Assembly (NCBI RefSeq): GCF_046119375.1
Contig: NW_027362764.1
Location: forward strand, 59,148,001-59,212,000
From: Phyllobates terribilis
Lineage: Eukaryota
Length of the DNA stretch: 64,000 nt
Reading direction: 5' to 3'
In this document: one piece after another, positions 8,075 through 61,100 of the stretch
Position numbering within the stretch: the first letter of the stretch is position 1
How the letters are laid out: each line of letters opens with the position of its first letter
Position numbers and translations under genes: made by a program
The notes under the pieces: model-generated
What the model was told of the DNA's origin: nothing
Database searches by the model: none
What the model saw: only the letters and a program-made list of their open reading frames with translations

Positions 8075-8479
8075 TTATATTTGATATGTATTATAGGACA
8101 TATGCTGCGCACCCACCACTCACATGCTGGAGATAAGCTGCCCACGCACCAGTCGCACATTAGATCAGTGCTGCACATGCACCACTCACACGCTGGAAAT
8201 ATGCTGCACATGCACCACTCACACACTGGACATGTGCTGCGCATGCACCACTCACACTGGATATATACTGTTATACTGTACATACAGCACTCACACTGGA
8301 TATATGTGGTGCATGCACCACTCACACTGTATATAAGCTGTGCATGAACTGCTCAAGCTGGAAATTTGCTGCACATGCACCAATCACACACTGTAAATAT
8401 CCTGCGTATGCACAACTTACACTGGATATATGTTGTGCATGTACCACTCACACTGGAAATATGCAGCACATGCACCACT
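8075..8479. repeat. Minisatellite of about 34 bp (tgctgcacatgcaccactcacacactgga), left part
   Basis: Tandem degenerate units that resume at 13401. Confidence 0.8.
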
Positions 8480-9948: not shown

Positions 9949-11276
9949 TGTAGCACCCCGAGGGCTCGGCTGCTACAGGGGTATTGCACCTCAAACCAGA
10001 GGTGTGGTATTCCACTCCCGGGTAAGGATGGAGTGTGGACCAGGACTCAGTAGCTGCATGCACCACACACACCCCATTTCCGAGGGACAGCTCAACGGTG
10101 CTCCCACAAGATAGAAGTACAGGCACGACAGCTTCTGTTCCTGGCTGGAGTGGGGAGGGGAAAGTACACCCAGTGGTGTAGGAGCAGATAGGGGTGGGTT
10201 TCTGGGCATAGATAGGAGCCCATTGGTTGCTAGTCACCTGGGCTCACACATAGAGGGAGGTATATAAGGTGGGCACCATCTTAGATCAGTGTTCAGTTCA
10301 GGCAGGAGGAGAAGAGGAGAGGAGCTCAGCCAGAGAGGGCTGACAGGGAGCTGTGGCTCAGTCTGGGCCCAGCTCCAGAGGCAGGCCTGGAGTGGAGGCC
10401 AGAAGCAGCAGAGAGAGAGAGGAGGAGGAACAGAAAGGAAAGTAAGAAAGGAACTGGAACAGAGGAGAAAGGAAGCAAAGAACACAGAGAAAGGCCCAGA
10501 GACACGAAGGCAGAAGGAACCCCATATGCCCAGAGGAGATACTGGGTGAAGGGTTGGCAGAATAGGGTACCGGAACCCAGATTGGTGGAGGCAACAGATT
10601 CCTCAGCCAAAGACCGGAGGTTGTTACCACATCTTGGTGTGACCCCTCACTACATCCACCAGAAAGGTATACCGTATAGGGTCAGGGAAACCGGAGAGAG
10701 GTTTCGCCAATAGAAGGCCCGAGGAAGCTGGACAAAGGTGGGTCCCTGGTGGGGACGGCCAGTAGAAAGGAAGAGAGGGGAGCTCTGAGCCACACTCTGG
10801 AATTGCCTGGGAGTTGACCGAGTCCCTCACCTGGTGGAAGCAGCACGGCTTGGGCAGTCATCGCCTGCAGCATTGACCTGAATAACAACCGTGAGTAAAG
10901 CTTTGGAAACTGCAATTACAAGTCTCTGTGTTTCATCGCCGCACCAGCACCATCAGTACTGGGACACTCACACCATCACTACCACCATCATCCACATTAG
11001 CTGCCCTGAGGCAATACTCCTCCCGTGGGGAGTTATCCCATACTCAGCTGCGCAACCAACACCAGCCTCAGCGGTCGGCAGCGCAGCGGCGGTCCCCACT
11101 GACCGCAATCCACGGGTGGCGTAGTCGGACATTTGTTACAACATTAAGACTGCCACTGGTTTGACCACCCTGGGCACGGACCGGGTCACCGCCACGGAGA
11201 ACTACAACCCCCAGCGATCCGGCTCCGGGTATTCCCCCTGCACAGTAGCTGCAGCACAGGCCCAGGGGGCGCGTCA
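9949..11276 (+). mobile_element. 5' LTR of a tRNA-Ser-primed LTR retroelement (1328 bp)
   Basis: TG...CA ends (tgtagcacccc...gcgcgtca); TATA-like tatataa near 10261; AGTAAA near 10895. The 3' portion is homologous to the solo LTRs at 45823-46831 and 48329-49321. Followed by a PBS. Confidence 0.85.
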
Positions 11277-11280
11277 ACTT

Positions 11281-11298
11281 TGGCGTAGTCGGCAGGAT
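11281..11298 (+). promoter_or_regulatory. Primer-binding site complementary to the 3' end of tRNA-Ser
   Basis: TGGCGTAGTCGGCAGGAT is the reverse complement of ATCCTGCCGACTACG+CCA, the 3' end of vertebrate tRNA-Ser(AGA/TGA type). It lies 4 nt after the LTR end. Confidence 0.9.
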
Positions 11299-11348
11299 CG
11301 TTACCAACCCGCCACAAGCGGGTATTGCGTGCCTGAAGAAAACTGCAC

Positions 11349-11687
11349 ATGTACCTTAAAAAGAAGTCTCCCGCCATTTCCAGAAGTTTCCCGCTGTCCG
11401 GAGTCGTTTCCCGCCATCCGGAGCCGATTCCCGCCATCAGACGCCATTTTGGACCGTTTCCCGCCATCTTCATCCGTTTTTCCCGCCCTGGCAGAGCGGA
11501 CGCCATTATGTGCGCACCAAAGGACAGCAGGAAGCCACCTCCCATCGTGGGCCAGGTCCCAGGGTGGCGCCAAAGAAGGAGCCCGCCCCCACCAGCCATG
11601 AATGCAGCAATGGAGATGTCCATCAACGTGGGGGGGCTGCCCCTGAAGGTGATTGTCAGCAGATGCCCCCAAGACCAACCCCCATGA
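11349..11687 (+). pseudogene. N-terminal part of the retroelement cargo ORF, separated from the 358-aa ORF by one in-frame TGA
   Basis: Same frame as 11757-12833. After TGA (11685-11687) the frame reads GRIGKKTEGLGAAWISLDLLHPE directly into the Met at 11757. Confidence 0.5.
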
Positions 11688-11756
11688 GGGAGGATAGGAA
11701 AGAAAACTGAGGGGCTGGGTGCGGCCTGGATCAGTCTGGACCTGCTGCACCCGGAG

Positions 11757-12833
11757 ATGGAGGGAGCAGAAAACTCCACCAACACCCTGGCCCGCAGCCT
11801 GCTGCAAGCGGAGCCACCCTGCAGCCTGACAGAACTGCTGGCACAACTGCCTAGAGACCCGGACCGTGCGCGCGCAGCGCTGGAAGATCTGAATAGAAGA
11901 ATGGTCCGGGCGCAGCGGGATGTGTTTGCCGGGTGGAGAGAGGAGATGGCCCGGCAGCACGGAGGTGACCAGCAGAGGACCCCGCCGGAACCGGGCAGCG
12001 CGCTTACCACTGGGCGCGGAGAAGAGAGACCGGCAGCTGCAGATGACGCCGCGGAGGAGGCCACGGAGACCGAGGCAGGTAATGGGGACGCCACCATCCC
12101 AAGCCCGGGGAACACCAGCCTGCCCTCACCCTCCGTTGCGGGACCCGAAGCCCCGGGGACCATACCTGACACCACGCCTCCACCGCCACCAACTAGGCCT
12201 CAGGCAGCAAGCACCGTCGTCACGCCCCTCCCCGCGCTGTGCCCTCTGAACCCTGGCGCCGTACAGCGTGAGACGTCACAGGCCAGGACGCAAGGCCCAG
12301 CACACCCGGGCGCCGCTGCCTCACCAGCGCCCCCTACCTTGGCGGTGCCACCCCCGGGCGCGACCAACAAGCGACCACCGGCCTGGTCGCAAGGCCGAGT
12401 GCCCCCGGGCGCTGCCACCTGTCCGAAGCCCACAGTGCCACCCTTGGGCGCGGACCTGTATGCCCAATATACCAGCCCGGACGGGCTACCCTTTGAATGG
12501 CCGCCGGAGTTCGCCAACCCCCGTCTCCGGAAAGAGCGACCCCTGAGTGAGCCTTTGATCCCGGCCCCGGAGCCCGCCAACATCGCTCCACCCCTGCCGG
12601 AGGATGCCCAGTTTGCATGGGACCCCACCGGCGAGAACCTCATGGGCTTCACCCAGGAGACCCGGGCGGAAGAAGCCCAGCGCCTGGAGTGCTGCCGTCA
12701 GCAGCTAGCCACCTATGAAAGAGAGCGGCGGCAGAGGCGCATCAGGGACTCCAGGCCAGGAGCGCGGAGCAAAAGAGGGGGGCCCGACAAGACACCCACG
12801 CCGTCCGCGGACCCAGAGCCACCGGGACCGTAG
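11757..12833 (+). CDS. 358-aa Pro/Ala-rich ORF of unknown function inside the LTR element (probably the middle of a longer decayed ORF)
   Basis: GC-rich open frame with helical or coiled-coil-like segments (AALEDLNRRMVRAQRDVFAGWREEMARQ; EEAQRLECCRQQLATYERERRQRR). No zinc knuckle, protease, YxDD or integrase motif. Confidence 0.55.
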   Translation: MEGAENSTNTLARSLLQAEPPCSLTELLAQLPRDPDRARAALEDLNRRMVRAQRDVFAGWREEMARQHGGDQQRTPPEPGSALTTGRGEERPAAADDAAEEATETEAGNGDATIPSPGNTSLPSPSVAGPEAPGTIPDTTPPPPPTRPQAASTVVTPLPALCPLNPGAVQRETSQARTQGPAHPGAAASPAPPTLAVPPPGATNKRPPAWSQGRVPPGAATCPKPTVPPLGADLYAQYTSPDGLPFEWPPEFANPRLRKERPLSEPLIPAPEPANIAPPLPEDAQFAWDPTGENLMGFTQETRAEEAQRLECCRQQLATYERERRQRRIRDSRPGARSKRGGPDKTPTPSADPEPPGP

Positions 12834-13132
12834 TCAAGTTCCAGCTGGAGCATGGCTAGGGCTTCATCAGAGACCCGGAGGCTGACACCGACGTCTTCGT
12901 CACTAGAAGGGACGTTGAAAGCCACCTGCCAGAGGGACATCACGGACGTGACCTGTACCCCGGCGACGTGGTCACCTACACTCGGCACAAGGGCGCAAAG
13001 GGACTGTACGCCCTCCACGTTCACCGGCTCACAGAGGAGGAACTGCAGTACCGCCCAGACACGGAATACACTGAGGATCCGGACGGACCAGAAGATTACC
13101 CGGAGGAGCGAGGAGGACACCGTTACCAGTAA
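12719..13132 (+). pseudogene. Cold-shock-domain (OB-fold) coding segment, -1 frame relative to the 358-aa ORF, with one internal TAG
   Basis: Reads GPRATGTVVKFQLEHG*GFIRDPEADTDVFVTRRDVESHLPEGHHGRDLYPGDVVTYTRHKGAKGLYALHVHR, then an acidic tail to TAA at 13130-13132. Matches the CSD pattern GTVKWF...G[YW]GFI...DVFVH...G[DE]xV[TE][YF]...G.KG..A..V. Confidence 0.78.
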
Positions 13133-13400
13133 ACGGTAAAATGGAACTGTATATAGTTACCCGTCAGGGTATGAGAACTTGCTGAAACTGTTAAATGATT
13201 GAAGTGTGGTCCCCGTTGGGACTAGTGTGGAGTTATTAAAGGGACTGTTACCTGTGTGCCCCTAATCCCTAACCAGGCTGAGGACTGTGAGCAGCCACTC
13301 CCTTATCCCCACTGGCCGAGGACTGAGAGCGGCCACCCCTGTAAATAGTTGCGCTTCCTAAAGCGCCCCCTACTGGTTTTATGCAAAAACCGCAACGTCA

Positions 13401-13750
13401 CACTCATACAATGGAAATATGCTGCGCATGCGTCACTCACACTGGGAATATGCCGCACATGCACCACTCATACACTGGAAATATTGTGCGCATGCGTTAG
13501 TCAGACATTGGATATATTCTGCACATGCACCACTCACACACTGCAAATACATCACTCACACTCTGGACACATGCTGTACACATATCACTGGCATGATGGT
13601 CATCTAGTGTGCTGCACATACACCAATTCCACAATGCAAATATTCCGTATATGCACCACTCACAAACTAGGTTAATCCTGCAGACACAACCGTTCATACA
13701 TGGAGATAGATCTGCCACTTACACATAGGACATATACTTCACAAGCACCA
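13401..13750. repeat. Minisatellite of about 34 bp, right part (continuation of 8075-8479)
   Basis: Same gcacatgcaccactcacacactgga units. Confidence 0.8.
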
Positions 13751-23545: not shown

Positions 23546-23928
23546 AGAGTTTGTCTACTACTTTTACATTGATGGCCTATCCTTAGGATAGGTCATCAAT
23601 TTCTTATTGGCCGGGGTCCGACACCAGGCACCCCCACCTATCAGCTGTTTTTGGAGTTGGCAGTGGCGGCCGCCGGCTGGAAATACTTATTAGATGGGCT
23701 GGCCGCATACTTGTAGTGGCTGCCAATTTGAATAGGAGGCGGATGTGCAGTACCCTGCGGCGGCCACTACAAGTAGACGGCCAGCTCCACAAGTAAGTAC
23801 TTTGGGCCGGCGGCTGCAGCAGATAACAGCTGATCGGCGGGGGGTAAAGGATGCCGGACCCGGACGATCAGACATTAATGATCTATAATAAGGATAGGTC
23901 ATCAATGTAAAAGTAATGATCAACCCCT
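23546..23928. mobile_element. T2/Kolobok-type MITE
   Basis: TTAA at 23542-23545 and 23929-23932; long imperfect inverted arms containing cctatccttaggatagg. Confidence 0.75.
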
Positions 23929-29783: not shown

Positions 29784-29890
29784 TGTCACGGGTGTGTCAG
29801 AGGTGACAGACAGTCGCCCTACAGTTGGTTGCAGGAGATCTCTACGTTTGGCGTTACAGACATCTTCTTAGAGGCCGGCTGTCTCTAGGA
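29784..29890 (+). mobile_element. 5' fragment of a tgtcacggg-family LTR
   Basis: Matches the first ~110 bp of 24306-24880, then breaks into Tc1 sequence. Confidence 0.8.
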
Positions 29891-31073
29891 CTCTCTCGTC
29901 CATTGAATTTGTCAGGTTTTGGATGGTTTCTGCTTCAATTGTTTTGCATGAGGACAGAATACCCTCCCAGAGCTGTTGCTTAGATGTGAACTGCCTCCCG
30001 CCATCATAGACACTCCTTTTGATGATGCTCCAGAGGTTCTCAATGGGGTTGAGGTCAGGGGAGCATGGGTGCCACACCATAAGTTTGTCCCCTTTTATGC
30101 CCATAGCAGCCAGAGATGCAGATGTGTTATGTGCAGCATGAGATGGGGCATTATCATGCATGAAAATGATCTCGATGGTCCAGATGGATGGAGTGGAGGA
30201 TGGCTGGTTGATGGACACCCCATGCAAACACGGCTACGGCGCCAACAAGGAGGAGGTGGAGTAATGTTTTGGGCTGGAATCATGGGAGATTGTCGGCCCT
30301 TTTAGGATCCCTGAAGGGGTAAAGATGAACTCCGTAATGTATGTTGAGTTTCTCAAACAGCACTTCCTTCCATGGTTCAAGAAGAAGAACCGTGCATTCC
30401 GCAGCAAGATCATTTTCATGCATGATAATGCCCCGTCTCATGCTGCACATAACACATCTGCATCTCTGGCTGCTAAGGGCATAAAAGGGGACAAACTTAT
30501 GGTGTGGCACCCATGCTCCCCTGACCTCAACCCCATTGAGAACCTCTAGAGCATCATCAAAAGGAGTGTCTATGATGGCAGGAGGCAGTTCACATCTAAG
30601 CAACAGCTCTGGGAGGGTATTTTGTCCTCATGCGAAACAATTGAAGCAGAAACCATCCAAAACCTGACAAATTCAATGGACGAGAGAGTTCAGAAGCTCC
30701 TTTCGAACAAGCGGTCGTATGTGCAAATGTAACATCACCTAGAATAAAGTTTTGAGTTGAAAACTGTTTGATTTCAGTTTGTAATAACCTGCTAATGCTT
30801 ATAATTTCAAAAATGACCATTTTTTTGTTCTTTATTAAAATGAAAAGGTTGAAAACTCTGCTGTGCATAATAATTTGGAACATGCATTTTGAGTGCAGTT
30901 TGAGTTTTTTTTTTTTTTTTTAAATATACTGTTATCATAGGTAGTTTGTACAAAAACCTTTCAATTGTACTCTAATAGTTATTTGACTGGAAAATTACAA
31001 TGACTGCAATTCATATAGGTAATTTGGGAAAATCTGAGAAAATATTATTTGCATAATAATTTGGAACACAGTG
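29891..31073 (+). mobile_element. Rearranged Tc1-like DD37E (TRT-type) element with an internal inverted duplication
   Basis: Reads DGPDGW...HDNAPSH...SPDLNPIEN, with 37 residues between D and E. Right TIR ends ...aatttggaacacagtg-TA. About 29891-30171 is the reverse complement of about 30407-30690. Confidence 0.85.
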
Positions 31074-38906: not shown

Positions 38907-39856
38907 TTATTAAAGGGGATACTCAGCCAGGAGACCTCTTTGTAATACAAGGATGAGCTGTCCACAGAATAAAACTCTTGAAATTAAATTTCAGAATAAA
39001 TAGTTTGTTAACTCAGCTGGTCAAGTAGCTGATATAATATTCCATGGTCACCCATGTTATAAATCAGGTGTGTAACACATTTGGCGTAAGTAGTAAGAGG
39101 GCTCCTGGCACATGCGCAAATGTATCCAATGGACCATATTTATCCAAAAGAGAGTGGCCTATCATAATTGCTCTTAAACTCATGGGGTCCTGATACCGGC
39201 CCCTTCAGGACGATGCATATGGTGTGCCAAAAACTGAAGAAGCCTTGGGTGTGTTGTGGAGTAGTAAATAAGTGAATAAATAAGGGGATCAGAGTGAGGT
39301 CTGAATTTAGGACTGTCATGCTTCCGGATTCGAACCCTTGATTCTGTGGTCGGCGTCTCTTTCCGCTGAGCCATAACTGATACACCTTTTTTTGGGTGTT
39401 TTAGTTCTGTTATCTTTGTTTCTGTCAGTTTTGGGTAACAGGTGTTTTTAATTTACTCTGTTTGTCTGTCCTATCACCTTTCGGGTACAGATTTAAATAC
39501 CTTTCCCTACTAGTGTATCCTGTTGGTGATAGGCAAAGTCTATGTGCCCACGATGCAGAAATTCTCAGGATTTTTTCCTGAGCGTTTCTGCATCTCCCTG
39601 ACAGAAAAAAACGCATGCGGATTGTACATGCGGATTGTACATGCGGATTGTACATTCGTTTTTCCTGCCAGGGACATGCGGATGTGAAGCGTTCTTCACT
39701 TGCATTTCCGTACGCGGATTGACAAGAGCTTTCCAAGCGATTTTAGCGTCACTTGGAAAGTGCTTGTCAACTTGGTCACACTATATAAATCCATGCAAAC
39801 TGCATGGATTTATATAGTGTGACCCGAGAGAATGTATAAAAATAAAAAAATATATA

Positions 39857-41478
39857 CAGTACAGACCAAAAGTTTGGACACACCTTCTCATTTAAAGATT
39901 TTTCTGTATTTTCATGCCTATGAAAATTGTACATTCACAATGAAGGCATCAAAACTATGAATTAACACATGTGGAATTATATACTTAACAAAAAAGTGTG
40001 AAACAACTGAAAATATGTCTTATATTCTAGGTTCTTCAAAGTAGCCACCTTTTGCTTTGATGACTGCTTTGCACACTCTTGGCATTCTCTTGATGAGCTT
40101 CAAGAGGTAGTCACCGGAAATGGTCTTCCAACAATCTTGAAGGAGTTCCCAGAGATGCTTAGCACTTTTTGTCCCTTTTGCCTTCACTCTGCGGTCCAGC
40201 TCACCCCAAACCATCTCGATTGGGTTCAGGTCTGGTGACTGTGGAGGCCAGGTCATCTGGCATAGCACCCCATCACTCTCTTTCTTGGTCAAATAGCCCT
40301 TACATGGCCTGGAGGTGTGTTTGGGGTCATTATCCTGTTGAAAAATAAATGATGGTCCAACTAAACGCAAACCGGATGGAATAGCATGCCGCTGCAAGAT
40401 GCTGTGGTAGCCATGCTGGTTCAGTATGCCTTCAATTTTGAATAAATCCCCAACAGTGTCACCAGCAAAGCACCATCACACCTCCTCCTCCATGCTTCAC
40501 GGTGGGAACCAGGCATGTAGAGTCCATCCGTTCACCTTTTCTGCGTCGCACAAAGACACTGTGGTTGGAACCAAAGTTCTCAAATTTGGACTCATCAGAC
40601 CAAAGCACAGATTTCCACTGGTCTAATGTCCATTCCTTGTGTTCTTTAGCCCAAACAAGTCTCTTCTGCTTGTTGTCTGTCTTTAGGAGTGGTTTTCTAG
40701 CATCTATTTTACCATGAAGGCCTGCTGCACAAAGTCTCCTCTTAACAGTTGTTGTAGAGATATGTCTGCTGCTAGAACTCTGTGTGGCATTGACCTGGTC
40801 TCTAATCTGAGCTGCTGTTAACCTGCGATTTCTGAGGCTGGTGACTCGGATAAACTTATCCTCAGAAGCAGAGGTGACTCTTGGTCTTCCTTTCCTGGGG
40901 CGGTCCTCATGTGAGCCAGTTTCTTTGTAGCGCTTGATGGTTTTTGCAACTGCACTTGGGGACACTTTCAAAGTTTGCCCAATTTTTCTCACTGACTGAC
41001 CTTCATTTCTTAAAGTAATAATGGCCACTCAATTTTCTTTACGTAGCTGCTTTTTTCTTGCTATAATACAAATTCTAACAGTCTATTCAGTAGGACTATC
41101 AGCTGTGTATCCACCAGACTTCTGCACAACACAACTGATGGTCCCAATCCCATTCATAAGGCAAGAAATCCCACTTATTAAACCTGACAGGGCACACCTG
41201 TGAAGTGAAAACCATTTCCGGTGACTACCTCTTGAAGCTCATCAAGAGAATGCCAAGAGTGTGCAAAGCAGTCATCAAAGCAAAAGGTGGCTACTTTGAA
41301 GAACCTAGAATATAAGACATTTTTTCAGTTGTTTCACACTTTTTTGTTAACTATATAATTCCACATGTGTTAATTCATAGTTTTGATGCCTTCAGTGTAA
41401 ATGTACAATTTTCATAGTCATGAAAATACAGAAAAATCTTTAAATGAGAAGGTGTGTCCAAACTTTTGGTCTGTACTG
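39857..41478 (-). mobile_element. Tc1-like DD38E (Intruder-type) transposon, near full length
   Basis: TA TSDs; TIRs of about 268 bp (39857-40124, 41211-41478) beginning cagtacagaccaaaagtttggacac. QDNDPKH...SPDLNPIE has 38 residues between D and E. Confidence 0.92.
40020..41028 (-). pseudogene. DD38E transposase, frameshifted by a small deletion after KHGGGGVMV
   Basis: ORF 40459-41028 holds the HTH region and WSDESK; ORF 40020-40397 holds QDND and PIE, in a different frame. Confidence 0.88.
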
Positions 41479-44272
41479 TATATACTTACCCTCCGATGGC
41501 CCGCGCTGTCTTGCTTCACTCCGTCCTGGCTACCAGCAGATCGCTGTACACTGAAGGACCTGCCGACGTCAGCGTCGCGTGAACCGTCACATGACTGACG
41601 TCAGCGCAGGTCCTTCATTCCATCGCGAAGTGCTGGGAAGCAAGGAGGAGCGCACCGCGGGCCGCCCGAAGGTAAGTATACATTTATTTTTTATTTTATT
41701 CTTTTTTTACAGCTTTTTTAATGGTACCTGGGTGTGGAGGAGACTCTCCTCTCCTCCACACCCGGGTACCATCCGCATATTAGAACACGCCAATTACGCA
41801 AGTACAGATGCAGTTTTGCGGAATTGGCGCGTTCTAATGCAAGTCAATGGCGGCGAAAACGCAGCGCTTCCGCAAAATTATTGGTAGTGCTGCGTTTTTT
41901 TCCACAATGATAATTCGCAGCGGAAACTTCCGCAGCATGTGCACAGCACATGCGGATTATCATTGGGGAACATGGCAGGCCTTTTACCAAGCGTTTTTTT
42001 TAAGCGTTTCTACAGCGTTTTTGCCGCTGCGGAAACGCTTAAAAAACACATCGTGGCGGCACACAGCCTTTGTTGGATTCATTCACTTTTCTGTAGTTTG
42101 TGTTCGTTGCAGTAGTTTTGTGTGTGTTTCCTTTATTTATTAGGGAACTGTTACTCTAGCGATCCTAGGAGCTGCTAAGGACATTCAGGCATCGAGTGGG
42201 GGCGCCATTACGTTATCTTAGGTTGCCAACCTCCGCGGTCAGGCAGAGACTGAACAGGGTCAGAGAAGGGTTTTTTCCTAGTCTGAACAGGGACCTGTGA
42301 GGTTAAGGTATTTGTCTTCCTGGTTTACACATTACCTGTATGAATGTGCTTTGGCAGTCATAAGGACACGATTAATTATTGCATTAGTACCTAGCTTTTG
42401 GCGCTTTTCAAATGTTTTTTCATTTGTGCCAAATTTATCTTTTAATTTGCTCCTTTATAGGTGTTCTCCTGGTTTTTTTTTTTATGTTGCAGGGGTGTCC
42501 AGATGTTTTTTTTGGCAGATTAATTGTAAATTTAAAAACAAAACACAAAATTTGGCACAAATATAATCCATCCCCATGCAGTAATTTTATATTCAGCAGT
42601 TATTCTCACGCAAATTTTGCACCATTTAGCCAAAAGTGTGACAAATCAAAGACAAAAATAAAGCGCATTTTCAATTTCGAGCAATATTGATGAACAGTTT
42701 GTACAATTTGGCGCCACGAATGACAATGAATACAACAGGGCAAAAAAATGAGACGTAAAAAAAAACGCTAATGATTAATTAAGCCTTTATTTGGAAAAGG
42801 CTAGAGGAGGGCGTGCAAACATTTAGTATGGGGGTCCAGAAGTTTCGAGTTATACTCCTATTCAAAACAAACTCGCCAACTTTTAGACAAGCACTTCCAA
42901 GTGGATAAAGAAAATGGTGAGGAAGCAATGTTGACCCTATATTTTCTCCATGTCTCACTATCCTGAATCACTTTCCTACTGGGAGATTTAGGGTGGGATT
43001 CAGAAGAGCCTAGAAGATTTGTTCCCGCTTCAGTAGGTCCCCCTTTTACTAGGAACCTGGTCTTACATGGACGGACCAGGCCTTCGAAATCCAGGGATGC
43101 CGCTTGTTAGCAGGTCTTTTCTTTAATTGAGGCTGTATTCACACATTGCAGCCGCGGTGCGTTTCATCGCTGTGCATTTTTTGACTAATGCATGTTAAAA
43201 AATCAGCATTAATGTCGCAATTTCTACTTCTTGAATTATCCAATAATCTAGAATCTATCATAATCTGGCCATGAAAGTGTTAAAACTTTCTATATAAATG
43301 CCATTTTCAAGAGCTGATGCTGATTATGAATGTATCCGCAGATCATGGGACACAACGCAGACGATTTGGTGGATGCATTAGCGTTACAGAAAACAGTTGT
43401 GATGGTCATGACATTGATGCTGCTGGGTCACATGACCCGACTGCGGGAGATTTTTTTTTTTTTCCGAAGTGTATCGGTATTGTGAACCAGCCCTGACCAT
43501 TACAGAGCTATGGACGGCTTTTAAAGTGCACCGATCAATATCTGCATTAACTTGCAATTAGGGATGTTGGAGTTTACTGCTTAGTGTGTCAGATGAATAA
43601 ATGATACATCGCACATTACTCTGGACATGCCGAACACTGAAACTTCACCGTGTTTAATCGGTTACGGTACAGCACGTGTTTATTTATTCAGGATTGTGAA
43701 CCAGATACATAAGATTTATTTATTTTCCCTTTATAGGGGGCTATAAATATTCAGAACTAATGGGAAATCTCAAATCCATAGTGCGCAATTTTGAAGTATG
43801 AAATATTAAAGAGTTTCCCTTTAAGTCCATAAATCATCATCTTCTGTCAAGTTAATAAAAGTTTTGTTCAGCTGTTTCTCAAAACTGAGAAAGTTGAGAG
43901 ACATCTGTGCCATCATAATTGGTTGTCATTTACCTTTCCTGCAGTTTTGAACTGCAAATATATATTTACCCATGGCAGTACAAAGGCTGCTACACAGGAT
44001 GCATTACTGATCCTGTACTGATACCGGGTAACATCCTGTATTATACTCCAGAGCTGCACTCACTATTCCGCTGGTGCAGTCACTGTGTACATACATTACA
44101 TTACTGATCCTGTACTGATCCTGAGTTACATCCTGTATTATACTCCAGAGCTGCACTCACTATTCTGCTGGTGGAGTCACTGTGTACATACATTACATTA
44201 CTGATCCTGAGTTACATCCTGTATTATACTCCAGAGCTGCACTCACTATTCTGCTGGTGCAGTCACTGTGTA

Positions 44273-45822: not shown

Positions 45823-46831
45823 TGTGGCACCCCAGGGGTCTGGTTACCACAGTAATAGAAATATTATGTCTGAGAGCAAGTGGGAGGTTTCTCTGGTCAG
45901 GAGCCCTAAGCATGCAACACGGCCCACCCAGACCTGGGAGGGGAGGAATCTGCCCTTATAAACTGGGTCTGGGGCGGGATTAGTGCAAACAGAGCCTGCA
46001 GAACAAGCAGAGCAGTCAGAGCCTGGAGTGAAGTTCCAGACACAGGGAGAGTTACAACAGGAGCTCAGTAGGAGCAGGAGCGAGTGCCAGAGGCTGGAAG
46101 CTAGAAAGCTCGCCTTGGCCGAAGACACTAAACCCGGACACGGAGTCCGAGGCTGTGGGGACATCCAGGTCCAGCAGCAGAATCCAACCGGCAGGGGATT
46201 CCATGTCCTCTGGCCTTAGAAGCCCGGAGGCACGGTCACAAGCAAGGGACCAGCACCGCCATCGTGAAGCGGAGGCTAACGGAAGGCCCCAAGTCACCGG
46301 CCATACGGGTGAGCACCACACGGTATACTCAGGGACGTGGGCTACTTCTATCCGCATAGAGCAAGGTAGCCAGGAAAGAGTGCAGATAGTCGGGGAGGCC
46401 TACAACTCCACCTGGCCAGGGGAGATCCTGCTTGCTCACAGACTGACCAGGCCTCTACTGCTAACCAGTACTCCCGGGAGGGTCTGCTTTATAACATCAG
46501 TAAAGACCCTGAACTGCACCACACGTCTCTGTGTTTCATCGCCGCACCAGCACCATTACTACTGGGACGCTCACACCTTCACTCCCATCATCCACACTAT
46601 TATTCCATACTCGGCTGCGCAAATTACATCAGCCTCAGCGGTCTGCAGCGCAGCGGCGGTCCCCACTAACCGCAATCCACGGGTGGCGTAGTCGGACATT
46701 GTTATTACTTAAGACTGCCACTGGTTTGACCGCCCTGGGCACGGACCGGGTCACCGCCACGGAGGACTACAACCCCCAGAGATCCGGCTCCGGGTATCCC
46801 CCTGCACAGCACAGGCCCAGGGGGCGCGTCA
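45823..46831 (+). mobile_element. Solo LTR (1009 bp) of the tRNA-Ser element family
   Basis: tgtggcacccc...gcgcgtca; 4-bp TSD GAAG (45819-45822, 46832-46835). Confidence 0.9.
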
Positions 46832-48175: not shown

Positions 48176-49739
48176 TGTCACGCAGGGTGTGGGAAAGACT
48201 TAGTGAAACACAAAAGGGAAGAGGGAAAGGGAGCCCAGACTCTAGGGAAAGGGGCCTAGTCAGACTGGCTGATCTAATATCACCCTGTCTCCACTAACGT
48301 CCCTATATTGGTTCTTCACCAATATAAGTGTGGCACCCCAGGGGTCTGGTTTCCACAGTAACAGCAATGTTATGTCTGAGAGCAGGTGGGAGGTCTCTTG
48401 GTCAGGGATCCTATGCATGCCACACCTCCTGCCCAGTCCTGGGAGGGGAAGAACTTCCCCTATATAAACCTAGGGCTGAGGCAGGGTTAGTGTGTAGAGA
48501 AGAAGTAGAGAAGAGAAGCAGATATAGGAAAAGAACATCAGGAGCTCTGTGGGAGCAGTGCTATAAGGAGTCAGGGGCTGGCAGCTGCAGAGCTCGCCCT
48601 GACTGGGAAGCTATCACCGGACCCGGAGTCCGAGGCTGTGGGGACTAACTTCTACCCAGCAGCAGAAACCGACCGGCAGGGGATTTCAGGTCCTCCGGCC
48701 AAGAAACCCGAAGGCACGGTCACACGCGTGGGACCAGCACCGCCGTCGTGGAGCGGAAGCTACTAGAAGGCCCCGAGTCACCGGCCATACGGGTGAGCAC
48801 CACACGGTACACTCAGGGACGTGGGCTACTTATACCCGCCTCTAGCAAGGTAGCCAGAAGAGTACAGTCAGTTTGGGAGGCCTACAACTCCGCCTGGCCA
48901 GGGGAGATCCCATCTGCTCAAGGACTGACCAGGCCCCGATCGCTAGCCAGTACTCCGGGAGGGTCTATCTTTATCACCAGTAAAGACCCTGAACTACACC
49001 GCATCGTCTCTGAGTGATTCCTGCTACCCCCATCATCCACGTCGGCTGCCCTGAGGCCATACCCCTCCCGTTGGGGGTGATACTATCACGCTGCACAATC
49101 CTACCACCGGCCTCAGCGGTCTGCCCTGCAGCGGCAGCTCCTTCGCTGCATTCAACGGGTGGCGTAGTCATCCAACATCTACCGCTAATACAACGCCACT
49201 TAGTCTGACTCCCTGGGCACGGACCGGGTCACCGCCACGAGACTACAACCCTCAACAGATCCGGCTCCGGGTAAGCTCCTGCATGCGCAACGCTGTGCGA
49301 CACAGGCCCAGGGGTGCGTCATAAGCATGCAAACCTCGCCCTGTCTTTCCCTGGTGTTTGGCCCTGGCTAGGCAAGGAAGGGGATGAGCGCTAGTCAATC
49401 CCCACTGACAACTAAGGACAACAATGGGGGAAGCAAGGGAAGATAGCTTAGCTTTTAGTCGACTTCAGAGAGATGAACACACGTCCTCATAGCACCAGAG
49501 AGGAAGAAATACTGCACTTGCTCTGAGCCTTCACAAGGGGTAACGTGAGTATCGAAGGCACCTCCCTCTGGCACACAGCAGGTATTTATACACCCAGGCC
49601 AGGCTGTTAATTAACCTTAGGAAGGTAGCCGCTGGGTCCTAAAGAGACAGCTTCTAAGAAGTTGTCTGTAATGCCAAACGAAGAGCTCTCCTGCAACCAA
49701 CTCCAGGGCAACTGTGTCACTTCCGACACACCCGTGACA
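48176..49739 (-). mobile_element. Solo LTR of the tgtcacg family (567 bp net), interrupted
   Basis: TSD CAGAG (48171-48175, 49740-49744); homologous to 27897-28474. Confidence 0.88.
48329..49321 (+). mobile_element. Solo LTR (993 bp) of the tRNA-Ser element family, nested in another solo LTR
   Basis: tgtggcacccc...gtgcgtca; TSD TAAG (48325-48328, 49322-49325). Confidence 0.9.
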
Positions 49740-50669: not shown

Positions 50670-50860
50670 TGGCAATAGGCAGTAAGAATAGCGTACGTTA
50701 AAAGTTTTCCTGTTACAGGTGACGGTTCAGAATGAGAACAGTTTCTGACCATTATAGGATTGCATTTTACCCCAGTTTTCACATCTGCACGTTCTTTCTA
50801 TAGTTTTCAGTTGTCTGAGATCTAGTGGGTTGAGACTAGCTGCTATGAAGTCTCCTATAC

Positions 50861-53800
50861 ACAGCACACACAGACATGAGGGATTCCTGCTCTCCTGTCT
50901 CTATAGCACACACAGACATGAGGGATTCCTGCTCTCCTGTCTGTATAGCACACACAGACATGAGGGATTCCTGCTCTCCTGTCTGTATAGCACACACAGA
51001 CATGAGGGATTCCTGCTCTCCTGTCTGTATAGCACACACAGACATGAGGGATTCCTGCTCTCCTGTCTGTATAGCACACACAGACATGAGGGACTCCTGC
51101 TCTCCTGACTGTATAGCACACACAGACATGAGGGACTCCTGCTCTCCTGTCTGTATAGCACACACAGACATGAGGGACTCCTGCTCTCCTGTCTGTATAG
51201 CACACATAGACATGAGGGACTCCTGCTCTCCTGTCTGTATAGCACACCCAGACATGAGGGATTCCTGCTCTCCTGTCTGTACAGCACACACAGACATGAG
51301 GGACTCCTGCTCTTCTGTCTGTATAGCACACACAGACATGAGGGACTCCTGCTCTCCTGTCGGTATAGCACACACAGACATGAGGGACTCCTGCTCTTCT
51401 GTCTGTATAGCACACACAGACATGAGGGACTCCTGCTCTCCTGTCTCTATAGCACACACAGACATGAGGGATTCCTGCTCTCCTGTCTCTATAGCACACA
51501 CAGACATGAGGGACTCCTGCTCTCCTGTCTGTATAGCACACACAGACATGAGGGACTCCTGCTCTCCTGTCTGTATAGCACACACAGACATGAGGGACTC
51601 CTGCTCTCCTGTCTCTATAGCACACACAGACATGAGGGATTCCTGCTCTCCTGTCTCTATAGCACACACAGACATGAGGGACTCCTGCTCTCCTGTCTCT
51701 ATAGCACACACAGACATGAGGGATTCCTGCTCTCCTGTCTGTATAGCACACACAGACATGAGGGATTCCTGCTCTACTGTCTGTATATCACACACAGACA
51801 TGAGGGACTCCTGCTCTCCTGTCTGTATAGCACACACAGACATGAGGGATTCCTGCTCTCCTGTCTGTATAGCACACACAGACATGAGGGATTCCTGCTC
51901 TCCTGTCTGTATAGCACACACAGACATGAGGGACTCCTGCTCTCCTGACTGTATAGCACACACAGACATGAGGGACTCCTGCTCTCCTGTCTGTATAGCA
52001 CACACAGACATGAGGGACTCCTGCTCTCCTGTCTGTATGGCACACATAGACATGAGGGACTCCTGCTCTCCTGTCTGTATAGCACACCCAGACATGAGGG
52101 ATTCCTGCTCTCCTGTCTGTACAGCACACACAGACATGAGGGACTCCTGCTCTTCTGTCTGTATAGCACACACAGACATGAGGGACTCCTGCTCTCCTGT
52201 CTGTATAGCACACACAGACATGAGGGACTCCTGCTCTTCTGTCTGTATAGCACACACAGACATGAGGGACTCCTGCTCTCCTGTCTGTATAGCACACACA
52301 GACATGAGGGACTCCTGCTCTCCTGTCTGTATAGCACACACAGACATGAGGGATTCCTGCTCTCCTGTCTCTATAGCACACACAGACATGAGGGACTCCT
52401 GCTCTCCTGTCTCTATAGCACACACAGACATGAGGGATTCCTGCTCTCCTGTCTGTATAGCACACACAGACATGAGGGATTCCTGCTCTACTGTCTGTAT
52501 ATCACACACAGACATGAGGGACTCCTGCTCTCCTGTCTGTATAGCACACACAGACATGAGGGACTCCTGCTCTCCTGTCTGTATAGCACACACAGACATG
52601 AGGGACTCCTGCTCTCCTGTCTGTATAGCACACACAGACATGAGGGATTCCTGCTCTCCTGTCTGTATAGCACACACAGACATGAGGGATTCCTGCTCTA
52701 CTGTCTGTATATCACACACAGACATGAGGGACTCCTGCTCTCCTGTCTGTATAGCACACACAGACATGAGGGACTCCTGCTCTCCTGTCTGTATAGCACA
52801 CACAGACATGAGGGATTCCTGCTCTCCTGTCTGTATAGGACACACAGACATGAGGGATTCCTGCTCTCCTGTCTGTATAGCACACACAGACATGAGGGAC
52901 TCCTGCTCTCCTGTCTGTATAGCACACACAGACATGAGGGACTCCTGCTCTCCTGTCTCTATAGAACACACAGACATGAGGGACTCCTGCTCTCCTGTCT
53001 GTATAGCACACACAGACATGAGGGATTCCTGCTCTCCTGTCTGTATAGCACACACAGACATGAGGGACTCCTGCTCTCCTGTCTCTATAGAACACACAGA
53101 CATGAGGGACTCCTGCTCTCCTGTCTGTATAGCACACACAGACATGAGGGATTCCTGCTCTCCTGTCTCTATAGCACACACAGACATGAGGGATTCCTGC
53201 TCTCCTGTCTGTATAGCACACACAGACATGAGGGATTCCTGCTCTCCTGTCTGTATATCACACACAGACATGAGGGATTCCTGCTCTACTGTCTGTATAG
53301 CACACACAGACATGAGGGACTCCTGCTCTCCTGTCTGTATAGCACACACAGACATGAGGGACTCCTGCTCTCCTGTCTGTATAGCACACACAGACATGAG
53401 GGATTCCTGCTCTCCTGTCTGTATAGGACACACAGACATGAGGGATTCCTGCTCTCCTGTCTGTATAGCACACACAGACATGAGGGATTCCTGCTCTCCT
53501 GTCTGTATAGCACACACAGACATGAGGGACTCCTGCTCTCCTGTCTGTATAGCACACACAGACATGAGGGATTCCTGCTCTCCTGTCTGTATAGCACACA
53601 CAGACATGAGAGACTCCTGCTCTCCAGTCTCTATAGCACACACAGACATGAGGGACTCCTGCTCTCCTGTCTGTATAGCACACACAGACATGAGGGACTC
53701 CTGCTCTCCTGTCTCTATAGCACACACAGACATGAGGGATTCCTGCTCTCCTGTCTGTATAGCACACACAGACATGAAGGATTCCTGCTCTCCTGTCTGT

Positions 53801-54207
53801 ATAGCACACACAGACATGAGGGATTCCTGCTCTCCTGTCTGTATAGCACTCACAGACATGAAGGATTCCTGCTCTCCTGTCTGTATAGCACACACAGACA
53901 TGAGGGACTCCTGCTCTCCTGTCTGTATAGCACACACAGACATGAGGGATTCCTGCTCTCCTGTCTGTATAGCACACACAGACATGAGAGACTCCTGCTC
54001 TCCAGTCTCTATAGCACACACAGACATGAGGGACTCCTGCTCTCCTGTCTGTATAGCACACACAGACATGAAGGATTCCTGCTCTCCTGTCTGTATAGCA
54101 CACACAGACATGAGGGATTCCTGCTCTCCTGTCTGTATAGCACTCACAGACATGAAGGATTCCTGCTCTCCTGTCTGTATAGCACACACAGACATGAGGG
54201 ACTCCTG
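50861..54207. repeat. 42-bp tandem satellite, about 80 copies (atagcacacacagacatgaggga[tc]tcctgctctcctgtctgt)
   Basis: Highly homogeneous head-to-tail units without spacers, embedded in a non-autonomous element beginning near TTAA 50698-50701. Confidence 0.97.
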
Positions 54208-55552
54208 TGAATCCAGCACTGGGGTAACTTAAAACATGAGAAAGCATCAGCAGCATGGGGAGATTTATACAGCACAATTGAGTTAGTTGTAAATCCAACA
54301 ATGGGGTTAAATAAAACATGTACTGGAAAGCAGCAGCATGGAAGACATTATAGATACTAGTACTAAACATTGTAGCTGTGAATCCAACACATGAAAGCAG
54401 CAGCAGCAGCATGGAAGGCATTATAAAATATATTTAAAGCAGTGTAGATGTGAATCTAGCACTGGGGTAAGATTAAAAAAAAAAAACAAGAGAACAACTA
54501 CATGGAGGATATTATACAGCAATACTGAGCAGTGTAGCTGTGACTCTAGTACTGGGGTGAGAAAACTGAGAAAGTAGCAGGACGAAGTATATTATACAGA
54601 AATACTGAGCAGTACTATGTACAATAAATATCAGTGAGTGTAAAAATAAGAAAACTGATCATTTTTTCTCCGCTTACCTATTATGTGAACTTTTGAAAAC
54701 TATACCATTTATTTCAAGAGGAGAGTACATAGAGGGTGACCACACAGCCAGCACCGCTATAAAGAGCAAATGAGTGAGCGAGGGATGCCATGTTATTTCT
54801 TCTCACTCACAAAATGAGACACCATGCCTGGCTATAGAACTACTGCTCAGTTGATGTCAGCGCACAGGTAATAAGTCTGAGGTCACTCCGAGGTGACAGC
54901 TGGAGTGAATTCGAGGACAGAAGCCTGACTTCATTATCCGCACTCATAAACTCAGCACCTCCGGATTTATGGGACATATTTTTGTGTGCAACTGGAGGAT
55001 CCGTCACTGACCTTCCAAGGTAACGACCGTGACAAATAAGTCCTACAAGTGGTAACATGGCTCCCTGCCGCAAAACAGACAAATAAGAAACACATTTATA
55101 CCTGGGGAACAATTTAAGATAATAGCTGTGCCATCAAGACTAACCCCCCACCCCCCTCAATTAACCAATTAGGAACTAAACTATTTTGGCCATTAGAGAA
55201 AGTAGAAATAGTTAATTCCACAATGTTGTTTTTAGATTAGAAGTATACTACATGTTTTGACACTTATCGGGGGATAATTCATAATGTTATGGGGAGGGTC
55301 CACATTATTGTATAAGAGCTATTAAAACAAAATAAATAGCAATAATAATATTATATTTTTTTAGATTAATACATTTTTTGTTGTTTGCTTCTTTCCCCAT
55401 AATTTGACTTTCATATTATTTTAATTTTGTTTACATTGATACGTCTCTTCGTGGAAATATATACTCTCAGGCACTTTGTTGTGTATCACCCAAAAAGGTT
55501 TTCCCAAGAGCAAAGCTGGATAAATCCCAAAAACATGCCTTTTTTCCCGTAC

Positions 55553-58170: not shown

Positions 58171-61100
58171 AAGAGGATCCTCCGGATCCCCTAGGCCCAG
58201 GCTTATCAGGAAACCTCCTGTGAAACGCTCTGACAAGTTTTGAAGCAGAAACATCATCCGCCCTCACCCATGAGTTATCCTCGGGTCCGAAACCTTTCCA
58301 AGCGACGAGATACTGCAAACTCCCTCTAAACCGTCTAGAATTTAGGATGCAGGAAATTTCGTATTCCCCGTCCTCCACCACCGGAGGAACAGTGGCAGAG
58401 ACGTCTCCATCCGACACACAAGCTCTTTTCAACAGAGAAACATGAAACACCGGATTAATCTTCCAGGAGGTAGGAACCTCCAACCTAACAGCAGATTGGT
58501 TAACTACCTGAAGCACCTTAAAGGGCCCTACAAACTTGGGACTCAATTTTTTAGAAGGAATCCTCAACCGCAGATTCTTAGAGGACAACCAAACCATGTC
58601 ACCAATAGCAAACAAAGCCTCTTGCCGTTTCCTATCAAAGTACCTCTTAGATTTTTTGTTAGCCTCCTGAAGATTACCACGCACATCCGTCCAAACTCTC
58701 TCCAAGTCACCGGAAAAACTCTCCTCCTCAGGCACAGCCGATACCAATTTGGAGAATGACCCAAAAGACGGATGTCTCCCAGAACAACATAAAAAAGGCG
58801 AACAACCAGCAGAAGAGGATGTATGGTTGTTAAGAGCAAACTCAGCAAGTGGCAGAAACTCAGACCACCCCTCCTGATTGTCTGCCACAAAACAACGCAA
58901 GAACTGCTCAACATCCTGATTCTTCCTTTCTGTCTGGCCATTAGACTCAGGATGATATCCGGATGAAAACGACAAATGAACTCCCAACCTGTCACAAAAA
59001 GCACGCCAAAAACGAGCCACGAACTGAGGTCCCCTATCCGAAACAATGTCAGTAGGAACGCCATGTAGTCTGACAATTTCCTTGACAAAGGCCTTAGCGA
59101 GTGTCTTAGCGCAGGGCAGTTTGATGAAAGGAACCAAGTGACACATCTTGCTAAAACGGTCAACAACCACCCAGATGACTGTGAAACCCTCAGAGGGGGG
59201 GAGGGCAGTAATAAAGTCCATAGCCAGATGTGTCCAAGGTGCACTAGGTACCTCCAGAGGGCAAAGCAACCCCGCAGCAGGAGTATGTGAAGACTTAGAT
59301 CTAGCACACACCGTACATTGACGCACCCACTTAATGACTTCCTTCTGCCATCCAGGCCACCAAAAACTGCGACCCACAAGTCTCTTGGTCTCAGAAATTC
59401 CTGGATGACCTGCCAACCGAGACTCATGACACTCCACAAACAAATCTCTCCTAAAGGTCCTAGGCACAAACAACCTCCCATGGGGAGTGTTAGATGGGGC
59501 ATTCTCCTGTGCTTTAAGAATCTCATCTTCCAAAACGGAGTCCAATGCAGCAATCACAACACCTTCTTGTAAAATGCTCTCCTCCTCCTCCTCAGCACCG
59601 ACCATGGGAGAAAAGCTGCGAGACAAAGCATCAGCTTTAACATTCTTGGTACCCGGGATGTAAGTAACGGAAAAATTAAACCGCGAGAAAAAAAGTGCCC
59701 ACCTAGCCTGACGGGCATTCAAGCGCTTGGCAGCATCAAGATAGATCAGATTTTTATGATCAGTGAAAACCTGAATGGGAAATTCAGCACCTTCCAAGAG
59801 ATGACGCCAGTGTTCAAATGCGAGTTTAATAGCCAGCAATTCCCGATTACCAATATCGTAATTAAGTTCAGTCTCAGAAATTTTTTTTTTAAAAAAAGCA
59901 CAGGGATGTACTCCATCCTTGATTTCCTGAGACAACACTGCACCGACCCCCACCGAAGAAGCATCAACCTCAACCAAAAATGGCTTAGTCACATCAGGCT
60001 GCATAAGGATAGGATCAGAGCTGAACCTCACCTTTAGAAACACAAAAGCTTCAATGGCCTCAGTAGTCCACTGAACCGCATTAGCACCTTTCCTGGTGAG
60101 ATCGGTCAGTGGTTTGACAATAATACAGAAAATTCATTAAAAATTTTTCTAATAATTGGCGAAACCCAAAAACCTCTGTATCGATTTCAAACCAATAGGC
60201 CTAGGCCATTCCTGCACAGCTTGAACTTTAACCGGGTCCATCTCAAAACCTTTACTGGAGATAATGTAGCCCAAAAAACTAATTCTCTGTACAGCAAACT
60301 CACATTTCTCCAGCTTAGCAAAAAGTGAATTGTCCATTAATAACTGTAATACCTCACGTACGCTCCGCCAATGAGACTCCAGATCAGGCGAATAAATCAA
60401 AATGTCATCCAAATACACAACCACATTTTTGCCGATCAAAGGTCTAAGGATGTCATTAATAAGATTCTGAAAAAATGCTGGAGCATTGGTAAGATCAAAA
60501 GGCATAACCAGGTTCTCAAAATGACCCACAGGAGTGTTAAAAGCAGTCTTCCATTCATCACCCTCCTTCATGCGCAACAAATTGTATGCCCCCCGGAGAT
60601 CAATTTTAGAGAACCACTTGGCCCCCACTAACTGGTTAAACAAATCAGGAATCAATGGCAGTGGGTAAGGATTGCGTACAGTAATTTTATTAATCTCACG
60701 AAAGTCCAGACAAGGATGTAAACCGCCGTCCTTTTTTTTAACAAAAAAAAATCCAACAGCCACAGGAGACTTGGAAGGCCTAATGTGACCAGCGGCCAAG
60801 CTTGTCTGTATGTATTCCTCCAAAGCCTTTCTCTCAGGAATAGTAAGATTAAATAAACGACTTTTAGGAAGAGTCGCTCCAGGGACAAATTCAATGGTAC
60901 AATCATAGTCTCTATGGGGAGGCAATATTTGTGACTCCTCCTCAGAAAAAACTCTCCAAAAATCCTGAATAGGTACAGGTAATTCCCCTTTTTCCACCGC
61001 AGCAATACGTCCGTTACAACACTTGTCATAACACTTAGGACTCCAGGACTTAATTTCATTGGTAGACCAATCCAGTACAGGATTGTGCAATTTTAACCAG

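Follow-up and report, generated by a model that had tools for sequence, protein, structure and literature searches.

A non-autonomous long terminal repeat retrotransposon of Phyllobates terribilis with a cold shock domain protein as its only gene

A stretch of 64,000 bp from the genome of the poison frog Phyllobates terribilis (GCF_046119375.1, contig NW_027362764.1, positions 59,148,001 to 59,212,000; referred to below as the window) contains, from its position 9949 onwards, a dead, 3'-truncated copy of a non-autonomous long terminal repeat (LTR) retrotransposon. By every feature that could be tested, the group to which this copy belongs is a non-autonomous satellite: its whole members carry two LTRs, a primer binding site (PBS), and a polypurine tract (PPT), and enclose a single open reading frame (ORF) for a protein with a cold shock domain (CSD). 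The ORF is under purifying selection. Its product is predicted to consist of an N-terminal segment, a first helix (helix 1), a Pro-rich linker, a charged second helix (helix 2), the CSD, and an acidic tail. The end signals of the satellite are shared with an autonomous Ty3/Gypsy family, which is called the partner or helper below.

Whole copies, abundance, and age

The satellite subfamilies A, B, and C share a PPT-LTR junction that is matched exactly at 23,781 places in the 10.6-Gb genome. At about 5 kb per copy, and excluding solo LTRs, this corresponds to roughly 1% of the genome. Two sets of copies were examined: the first 40 junction matches along contig C1, which form a sample by position, and the 29 best-matching other copies, which are biased towards close relatives of the window copy. 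Whole copies with both LTRs and a PPT were found, and the PPT lies directly 5' of the 3' LTR. All 16 subfamily-A copies that were fetched consist of an LTR, about 2.5 kb of internal sequence, the PPT, and a second LTR, with a total length of about 5.1 kb; their LTR pairs are 97.1-99.6% identical. In the position sample, the span from PBS to PPT is 1.6-3.2 kb, and an exact 4-bp target site duplication (TSD) was called automatically in 28 of the 40 copies. None of these 40 copies has gag or pol between PBS and PPT, the pol matches at six loci all being located upstream of the element. A search of one whole copy against Rfam gave no match.

The element had been proposed, from the window copy alone, to be a non-autonomous satellite without Gag or enzyme motifs whose repaired ORF would have some 590 codons. 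This reading is supported by the whole copies, which close with a PPT and an LTR and do not continue into gag-pol, and the CSD is the only Pfam match in the ORF. An uninterrupted ORF of 578-606 codons occurs naturally in 20 of the 29 best-matching copies, while two more are open in a shortened form and seven are broken; one open natural copy encodes 596 amino acids when counted from the first AUG. In the position sample, a frame of 500+ codons that holds helix 2 and the CSD is open in 29 of the 40 copies.

The LTR pairs of 38 position-sampled copies could be measured (L198 and L201 were left out, having no true pair). They are 98.4-100% identical, with a median of 99.7 and four identical pairs. 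On the basis of these values the satellite group is young, and it may still be moving.

Head-to-tail tandem copies that share an LTR were also encountered (L152; L021/L022; L291-L294), with up to four units at a spacing of about 3.1 kb. Four other loci (L147, L148, L153, and L157) are older, degenerate CSD-bearing copies in which the likeness is confined to the CSD part. Two of these have a different PBS, presumably for a tRNA-Ser isoacceptor.

Selection on the ORF and the position of its start

The ratio of nonsynonymous to synonymous substitution rates (dN/dS, omega) was determined between subfamilies in 9 non-independent pairs (8 pairs for helix 2), with dS partly near saturation. It was 0.07-0.26 for the CSD, 0.05-0.21 for helix 2, and 0.13-0.40 for helix 1. 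Higher values were obtained for the Pro-rich linker (0.52-0.68) and for residues 54-135 (0.43-0.92). Within the subfamily of the window copy, variants were counted in 27 copies after two duplicates had been dropped. Variants common to several copies numbered 55 nonsynonymous and 67 synonymous, with an omega of about 0.3 and no stop codon, versus 177 and 94 for variants private to one copy, with an omega of 0.64. All 5 stops were private. Since the shared variants are constrained and free of stops, the replicating lineages must have kept the protein.

An AUG at window position 11508 is kept, in the same context, in 11 of 11 open copies compared, which encode products of 513-618 amino acids from this codon. 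It is the likely start codon, and the protein would then have ~540 residues. An upstream in-frame AUG at 11349 is disfavored as the start: it is present only in subfamilies A/A2 and not in copies of B and C, and the segment 5' of the conserved AUG has a dN/dS of 0.45-1.97. Translation could alternatively begin at the AUG at 11757.

The CSD protein

The only Pfam match of the ORF product, the CSD (PF00313), scores 27.9-32.9 bits at a cut-off of 27. In an AlphaFold2 model based on 15 sequences, which has a mean predicted local distance difference test (pLDDT) value of 50.8, the ordered parts are a five-strand oligonucleotide-binding (OB) fold and a charged helix of 45 residues, both mostly at a pLDDT of 68-94, as well as a helix of 37 residues at a pLDDT of about 70. 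Disorder is predicted elsewhere, including the Pro-rich linker. Only CSD/OB folds are returned when the whole model is used in fold searches. Foldseek matched it to CspA (E 1e-6, root mean square deviation (rmsd) 1.9) and also to the CSDs of YBX1 and YBX2. A profile of the C-terminal module had YBX1/YBX2 as top match (E 2.6e-11, 46.9 bits) versus 43.0 bits for CspA; the donor of the CSD was thus likely a Y-box protein, the margin over CspA being modest. The ESM Atlas gave no usable match for the whole protein and no more than leads, at 0.82, for the C-terminal part.

The satellite protein resembles YBX1 and YBX2 (PDB 6ktc and 7f3l) in its CSD fold, in loop length, and in having Pro-rich and charged flanks: the CSD adjoins a basic helix and a disordered region rich in Pro. 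It differs from them in the location of the domain, which is C-terminal here and near the N-terminus in the YBX proteins. Members of the Y-box family have been described as having a near-invariant CSD and, on its C-terminal side, a long domain of basic and acidic repeats (PMC6040738). With about 28-30% identity to YBX1/YBX2 in the CSD and an acidic tail of only 30 residues after it, the satellite protein falls outside this family.

Homologues with the same layout of helix and CSD are present in Ranitomeya variabilis, R. imitator, and Anomaloglossus baeobatrachus and in one further record. Word-indexed protein searches returned 1, 1, and 4 relatives among the matches listed, all of them poison-frog proteins; no form of the CSD ORF fused to pol was among the matches listed, which argues weakly against its existence elsewhere. 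The Ranitomeya and Anomaloglossus homologues (P0002 and P0003) have C-terminal extensions with repeated TQT motifs, which are absent from the P. terribilis families and which we take to resemble binding sites of the dynein light chain LC8. The P. terribilis genome also contains host-type sequences with multiple CSDs (L111-L118, at C1:734.44 Mb and C2:702.8 Mb), presumably CSDE1/UNR-like, the copy on C1 being apparently an intronless duplicate.

The autonomous partner

Gag-pol elements that share the LTR end and the PBS of the satellite had been predicted to exist, and they were found using a solo LTR located in the window at 45823..46831 (+). A search with this sequence revealed LTR pairs 7 kb apart. 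Four copies (L061-L064) were fetched; they have LTRs of ~1.0 kb, a PNMA-type Gag with a CCHC motif, and protease, reverse transcriptase (RT), RNase H (RH), and integrase (IN), and copy L062 is open over 1448 codons. The gag and pol genes of an autonomous Ty3/Gypsy element, with the pol domains in the order just given, are present in L062; the satellite lacks them. The partner has the same PBS and PPT core as the satellite and is 89% identical to it across the last 373 bp of the LTR (U5). Exact matches to its PPT junction number 1,964; for this partner family alone, the ratio to satellite junctions is about 1 to 12. The shared signals, together with the leader recombinants described below, indicate that this family likely supplies Gag and Pol. 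The four helper copies contain no homology to the CSD ORF, the sole matches being read-through from LTR and leader. A search for the PNMA family gave 30 loci of other Gag families, none of which had an LTR or PBS like those of the satellite.

The solo LTR at 45823, which has the TSD GAAG and is 92% identical to the helper LTR, and a second one at 48329..49321 (+), with the TSD TAAG and 75% identity, had been regarded as members of the satellite family and as a sign of its abundance. Abundant it is; the solo LTRs are of the helper type. Both match the helper LTR along almost their whole length and the satellite LTR only across 245-320 bp of U5. The second belongs to another partner-type family.

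Derivatives without an intact ORF

In three of the 40 position-sampled copies the CSD is missing as a consequence of three different microhomology deletions. The deletion junctions have 103, 66, and 31 exact matches in the genome, in total 200 versus 23,781 for the satellite junction. Deletion 1 (103 matches) is an in-frame loss of helix 2 and the CSD. In a tree of 20 sampled copies with this deletion and 26 comparison copies (one of which has a different deletion and the other 25 none in the CSD), the two types interleave: 7 label changes were counted, at least 5 of them on starred branches, from which it follows that deletion 1 recurs and has founded no single large clade. Deletion 3 (31 matches) occurs in at least 4 lineages, one of which consists of nine copies that are near-identical, as judged by element sequence alone.

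A different type of derivative is represented by subfamily E (L207, L227, L208, and L235-L264). Only 26-200 nt of the helper leader of ~470 nt are common to subfamilies A, B, and C. Subfamily E has the helper leader up to the gag AUG, with 84-86% identity over ~470 nt, fused to helix 1 of the CSD ORF, and it thereby documents physical exchange between helper and satellite. An established route for such exchange is recombination while RNAs packaged together are being reverse-transcribed (PMC6894440), and we infer that helper and satellite RNAs have been packaged together. The subfamily E junction has 249 exact matches, and a comparison of 15 copies gave identities of 97.6-99.7%. Helix 1 is not in the frame of the AUG in any of 30 copies, a second break was observed in 24 of 25, and only 6 of 30 have helix 2 and the CSD in one frame.

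Because CSD-less deletions recur yet stay rare, and because subfamily E has spread with a broken ORF, the protein likely gives an advantage to its own RNA and is yet dispensable, most clearly in the clade with the helper leader.

Possible function of the protein

The anatomy, number, and young age of the copies, the selection on the ORF, the shared signals, the recombinants, and the fate of the ORF-less derivatives are observations; beyond them, we propose a model of expression, RNA binding, preference for the RNA in cis, and packaging. The CSD protein would bind the RNA of its own element in cis and help to load it into the particles of the PNMA-Gag Ty3/Gypsy partner, a proposal to which we give an even chance. 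The element would be transcribed from its own U3 and translated, after which the CSD and the basic helix would bind the encoding RNA. The bound RNA would be helped into a partner particle, with the protein standing in for the packaging signal in the partner's leader, and tRNA-Ser priming and the shared PPT and U5 ends would let the RT and integrase of the partner complete the insertion. An analogy is offered by the host CSD protein YB-1, which is reported to support the production of human immunodeficiency virus (HIV), murine leukemia virus (MLV), and mouse mammary tumor virus (MMTV) through RNA (PMC6040738) and the assembly of dengue virus (PMC8903895). A more specific version, in which the captured Y-box-type module is a self-encoded adaptor that replaces the helper packaging signal, holds its own RNA, and hijacks the helper capsid, is rather doubtful. 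If it is correct, such an adaptor allows the satellite to exceed the measured helper family in number by about 12 to 1.

Several observations weigh against packaging in cis by this partner. U3 and R are not shared between partner and satellite, and other partner-type families exist, as the solo LTR at 48329 indicates, so that the helper need not be this particular family. The protein is no absolute requirement in cis, given that subfamily E spread with a broken frame. In a tree with 12 sampled copies, deletion 2 (66 matches) gave 2 label changes (bootstrap 2-4) and a starred clade of 4, from which it follows that limited spread without the CSD occurs. The leader-swap argument rests on one clade, subfamily E, whose apparently relaxed selection is read from small counts of shared variants (14 nonsynonymous and 6 synonymous plus a shared stop, versus 36 and 36 in subfamily A) to which no statistical test was applied. 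RNA binding by the CSD, if it occurs, is probably altered: in an alignment with YBX1, two Phe positions are kept, and the Trp before the Phe of strand 1 and the His of RNP2 are replaced, all of which we take to be RNA-contacting positions in YBX1. A prediction of a complex between the partner Gag (residues 20-200) and the C-terminal module scored 0.01, which weighs neither way. Finally, selection in cis would be predicted equally if the protein were a Y-box mimic that, in germ cells, coats its own RNA and stabilizes or stores it, or a nucleocapsid-like annealing chaperone, without any role in the choice of RNA for packaging. This explanation fits almost as well and is a real, if lesser, possibility. 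The best solved relatives of the C-terminal profile are the CSDs of YBX1 and YBX2, the Pro-rich disordered region and basic helix beside the CSD are in keeping with such a role, and YB-1 has been reported to stabilize retroviral RNA (PMC6040738). RNA coating alone leaves unexplained why the single large ORF-dead clade is the one with the full helper leader; moreover, the conserved motifs outside the CSD and the constraint on helix 1 suggest protein contacts beyond the coating of RNA.

Packaging in cis and RNA stabilization both account for the data better than do the notions of a product that serves all copies in trans or of a cryptic Gag. A protein that blunts small-RNA silencing or boosts helper output could be used by any copy, and broken or deleted derivatives do transpose, as is apparent from subfamily E and from the starred clade without the CSD. 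If the protein were purely such a public good, the shorter cheaters that frequently arise would be expected to take over; instead, 29 of the 40 sampled copies are intact, the four types of cheater that were measured add up to about 450 matches versus 23,781, and all large subfamilies are still under selection. It is therefore considered unlikely. Still less probable is that a Gag or Env of high divergence is encoded here, which would make the element a semi-autonomous one of the TR-GAG or bhikhari-like kind. The ORF does occupy the position of gag 3' of the PBS, and LTR elements with a single ORF that have retained Gag are known (PMC13570524, PMC13269885). A recognizable Gag at the N-terminus would have spoken against the original prediction, and no likeness to Gag or Env was detected: Pfam gave no match beyond the CSD, hhalign of the ORF protein to the partner Gag returned a probability of 0.1%, and the ORF sequence contains no CCHC knuckle or hydrophobic transmembrane run. 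The parts predicted to be ordered are two long helices and an OB fold and not the helical bundles of a capsid. A separate model of the N-terminal part yielded generic long-helix matches in a fold search (best Z 5.3, rmsd 7.0, 78 aligned residues); its low confidence (mean pLDDT 47.9) leaves room for a remote fold. Another idea is that the element is no more than an ordinary gag-pol element cut down to its 5' end, or a host cDNA fragment carried neutrally; the window copy itself is indeed truncated and broken. This idea is refuted by the PPT and LTR that close whole copies about 2.5 kb 3' of the PBS, by the absence of gag and pol from all 40 sampled copies, and by the strong selection and the homologues of the same layout in other genera, and it retains hardly any probability.

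Relation to known elements

The usual expectation for a non-autonomous LTR element is that it either lacks coding capacity or retains Gag. With its LTR pair, PBS, PPT, and TSD, its lack of pol, and its partial sharing of sequence with an autonomous partner, the satellite resembles the LARD, TRIM, and TR-GAG elements as these are described in PMC13570524. At about 5.1 kb it is also as long as LARDs, which exceed 4 kb. The same account presents LARDs and TRIMs as non-coding and TR-GAGs as keeping Gag or decayed pol domains (PMC13570524), whereas the satellite has an open ORF under selection. Unlike all three, it retains a non-Gag gene of host type, predicted to be RNA-binding, under purifying selection. 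The plant system SNARE of soybean (SARE/SNRE; Du et al. 2010) reportedly consists, to go by the title of that work, of autonomous and non-autonomous partners with sequence exchange; the exchange documented for the satellite concerns the leader. The zebrafish elements BHIKHARI-1 and -2 are said to have a single-ORF layout. Like the satellite, they are LTR elements of a vertebrate for which one conserved protein is characteristic; they are described as endogenous retroviruses (ERVs) with a Gag protein (PMC13269885), whereas the satellite ORF has no likeness to Gag.

CSDs have been captured repeatedly by bird ERVs, 46 of which were counted, and a convergent benefit has been suggested (PMC12287698). 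The avian elements and the satellite have in common a CSD within an LTR retroelement; the former are retroviruses classified by their RT in which the position of the CSD varies (PMC12287698). The satellite differs from them in that the CSD protein is its sole gene, in its link to Ty3/Gypsy, in its number of over 20,000 copies, and in the measured selection. The gag/pol/env backbone of a retrovirus is also missing from it: the satellite has no pol, and its partner is of the Ty3/Gypsy type with a PNMA Gag. No description of a satellite with only a CSD gene was found in the literature surveyed, with Repbase, Dfam, subscription papers, and supplements outside that survey; Table S6 in PMC12287698 and the PMC12822217 repeat libraries may bear on novelty.

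A host-type gene for RNA binding that is kept under strong selection across subfamilies and genera would represent a further way to parasitize a helper. If the repeated capture of CSDs by bird ERVs reflects a general benefit, as has been suggested (PMC12287698), the satellite isolates this benefit in a single gene. The activity of Ty3 elements has been linked to genome size in anurans (PMC12822217), and counts based on pol would miss the copies of the satellite. The recurrent CSD deletions and the leader-swap clade are natural experiments by which the use of the protein in cis versus in trans, and the competition between helper and satellite, can be tested from sequence.

Anatomy of the window copy

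All parts of the window copy are located on the forward strand. Its 5' LTR (9949..11276) has the predicted length of 1328 bp, starts with TG and ends with CA, and is 89% identical to that of the whole copy L069. Motif scans point to a TATA-like box of a putative U3 promoter at 10261..10267 and to the poly(A)-signal variant AGTAAA at the putative end of R (10894..10899), a hexamer that also occurs at the corresponding place in the helper LTR. The U5-like segment common to the autonomous partner is located at 10908..11276 (90% identity). The PBS of 18 nt at 11281..11298 is, as had been noticed, perfectly complementary to tRNA-Ser: it is the reverse complement of the 3' end of tRNA-Ser plus CCA, with 24 pattern matches in the genome, and ARAGORN called tRNA-Ser(AGA). 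A partial second PBS-like site lies within U5 at 11117..11128, 150-180 nt 5' of the PBS. Such a site (11-12 nt; <=1 mismatch) was observed in 70 of 74 LTR-PBS junctions, the helper included. In the older copy L147, which has the other PBS, the LTR copies of this site change in step with the PBS, which hints that it could be a second tRNA contact.

The PBS is followed by the leader (11299..11507), of which the initial ~170 nt resemble the helper leader (82-86% across two blocks), and by the ORF in three pieces. Piece 1 (11508..11687) begins at the conserved AUG and ends in a premature stop at 11685-11687. Piece 2 (11688..12746) contains helical segment 1 (about 11757-11970), the Pro-rich disordered linker, conserved motifs, and the start of the charged helix 2. 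The end of helix 2, the CSD (about 12818-13030), and the acidic tail are encoded by piece 3 (12747..13132), with the natural stop at 13130-13132. Much of what had been read from this copy stands: the internal region is rich in GC (0.62-0.68 at 11-13 kb versus about 0.40-0.49 in the flanks), the frames 11337-11687 and 11688-12833 are a single frame split by one stop, and the CSD frame (12722-13132) overlaps the upstream frame by 112 bp, close to the 110 bp estimated. A run of six G residues at 12777-12782, which had been the suspected indel site, contains no indel. The three lesions are the stops at 11685-11687 and 12857-12859 and a gap of 7 nt after 12746; no other indel separates the coding region from that of an open natural copy.

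A remnant of the 3' untranslated region occupies 13133..13399. The copy breaks off at ~13399, about 360 bp before the position of the PPT in whole copies, and as a consequence of this truncation it lacks PPT and 3' LTR and has no TSD that could be tested. Similar degenerate minisatellites of ~32 bp flank the element at 8096-8479 and 13401-13576, the latter adjoining the point of truncation.

Other repeats in the window

A tandem array with a period of 42 bp, consisting of about 80 copies that are 95-99% identical, is located at 50739-54300. A degenerate pol of another Ty3/Gypsy element lies on the reverse strand at 58535-60793 and is 37% (RT-RH) and 25% (IN) identical to that of the partner. 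Long inverted repeats are present at 29890-30689 (288 nt, 97% identity) and 39848-41487 (281 nt, 98% identity); these are likely miniature inverted-repeat transposable elements or the ends of DNA transposons.

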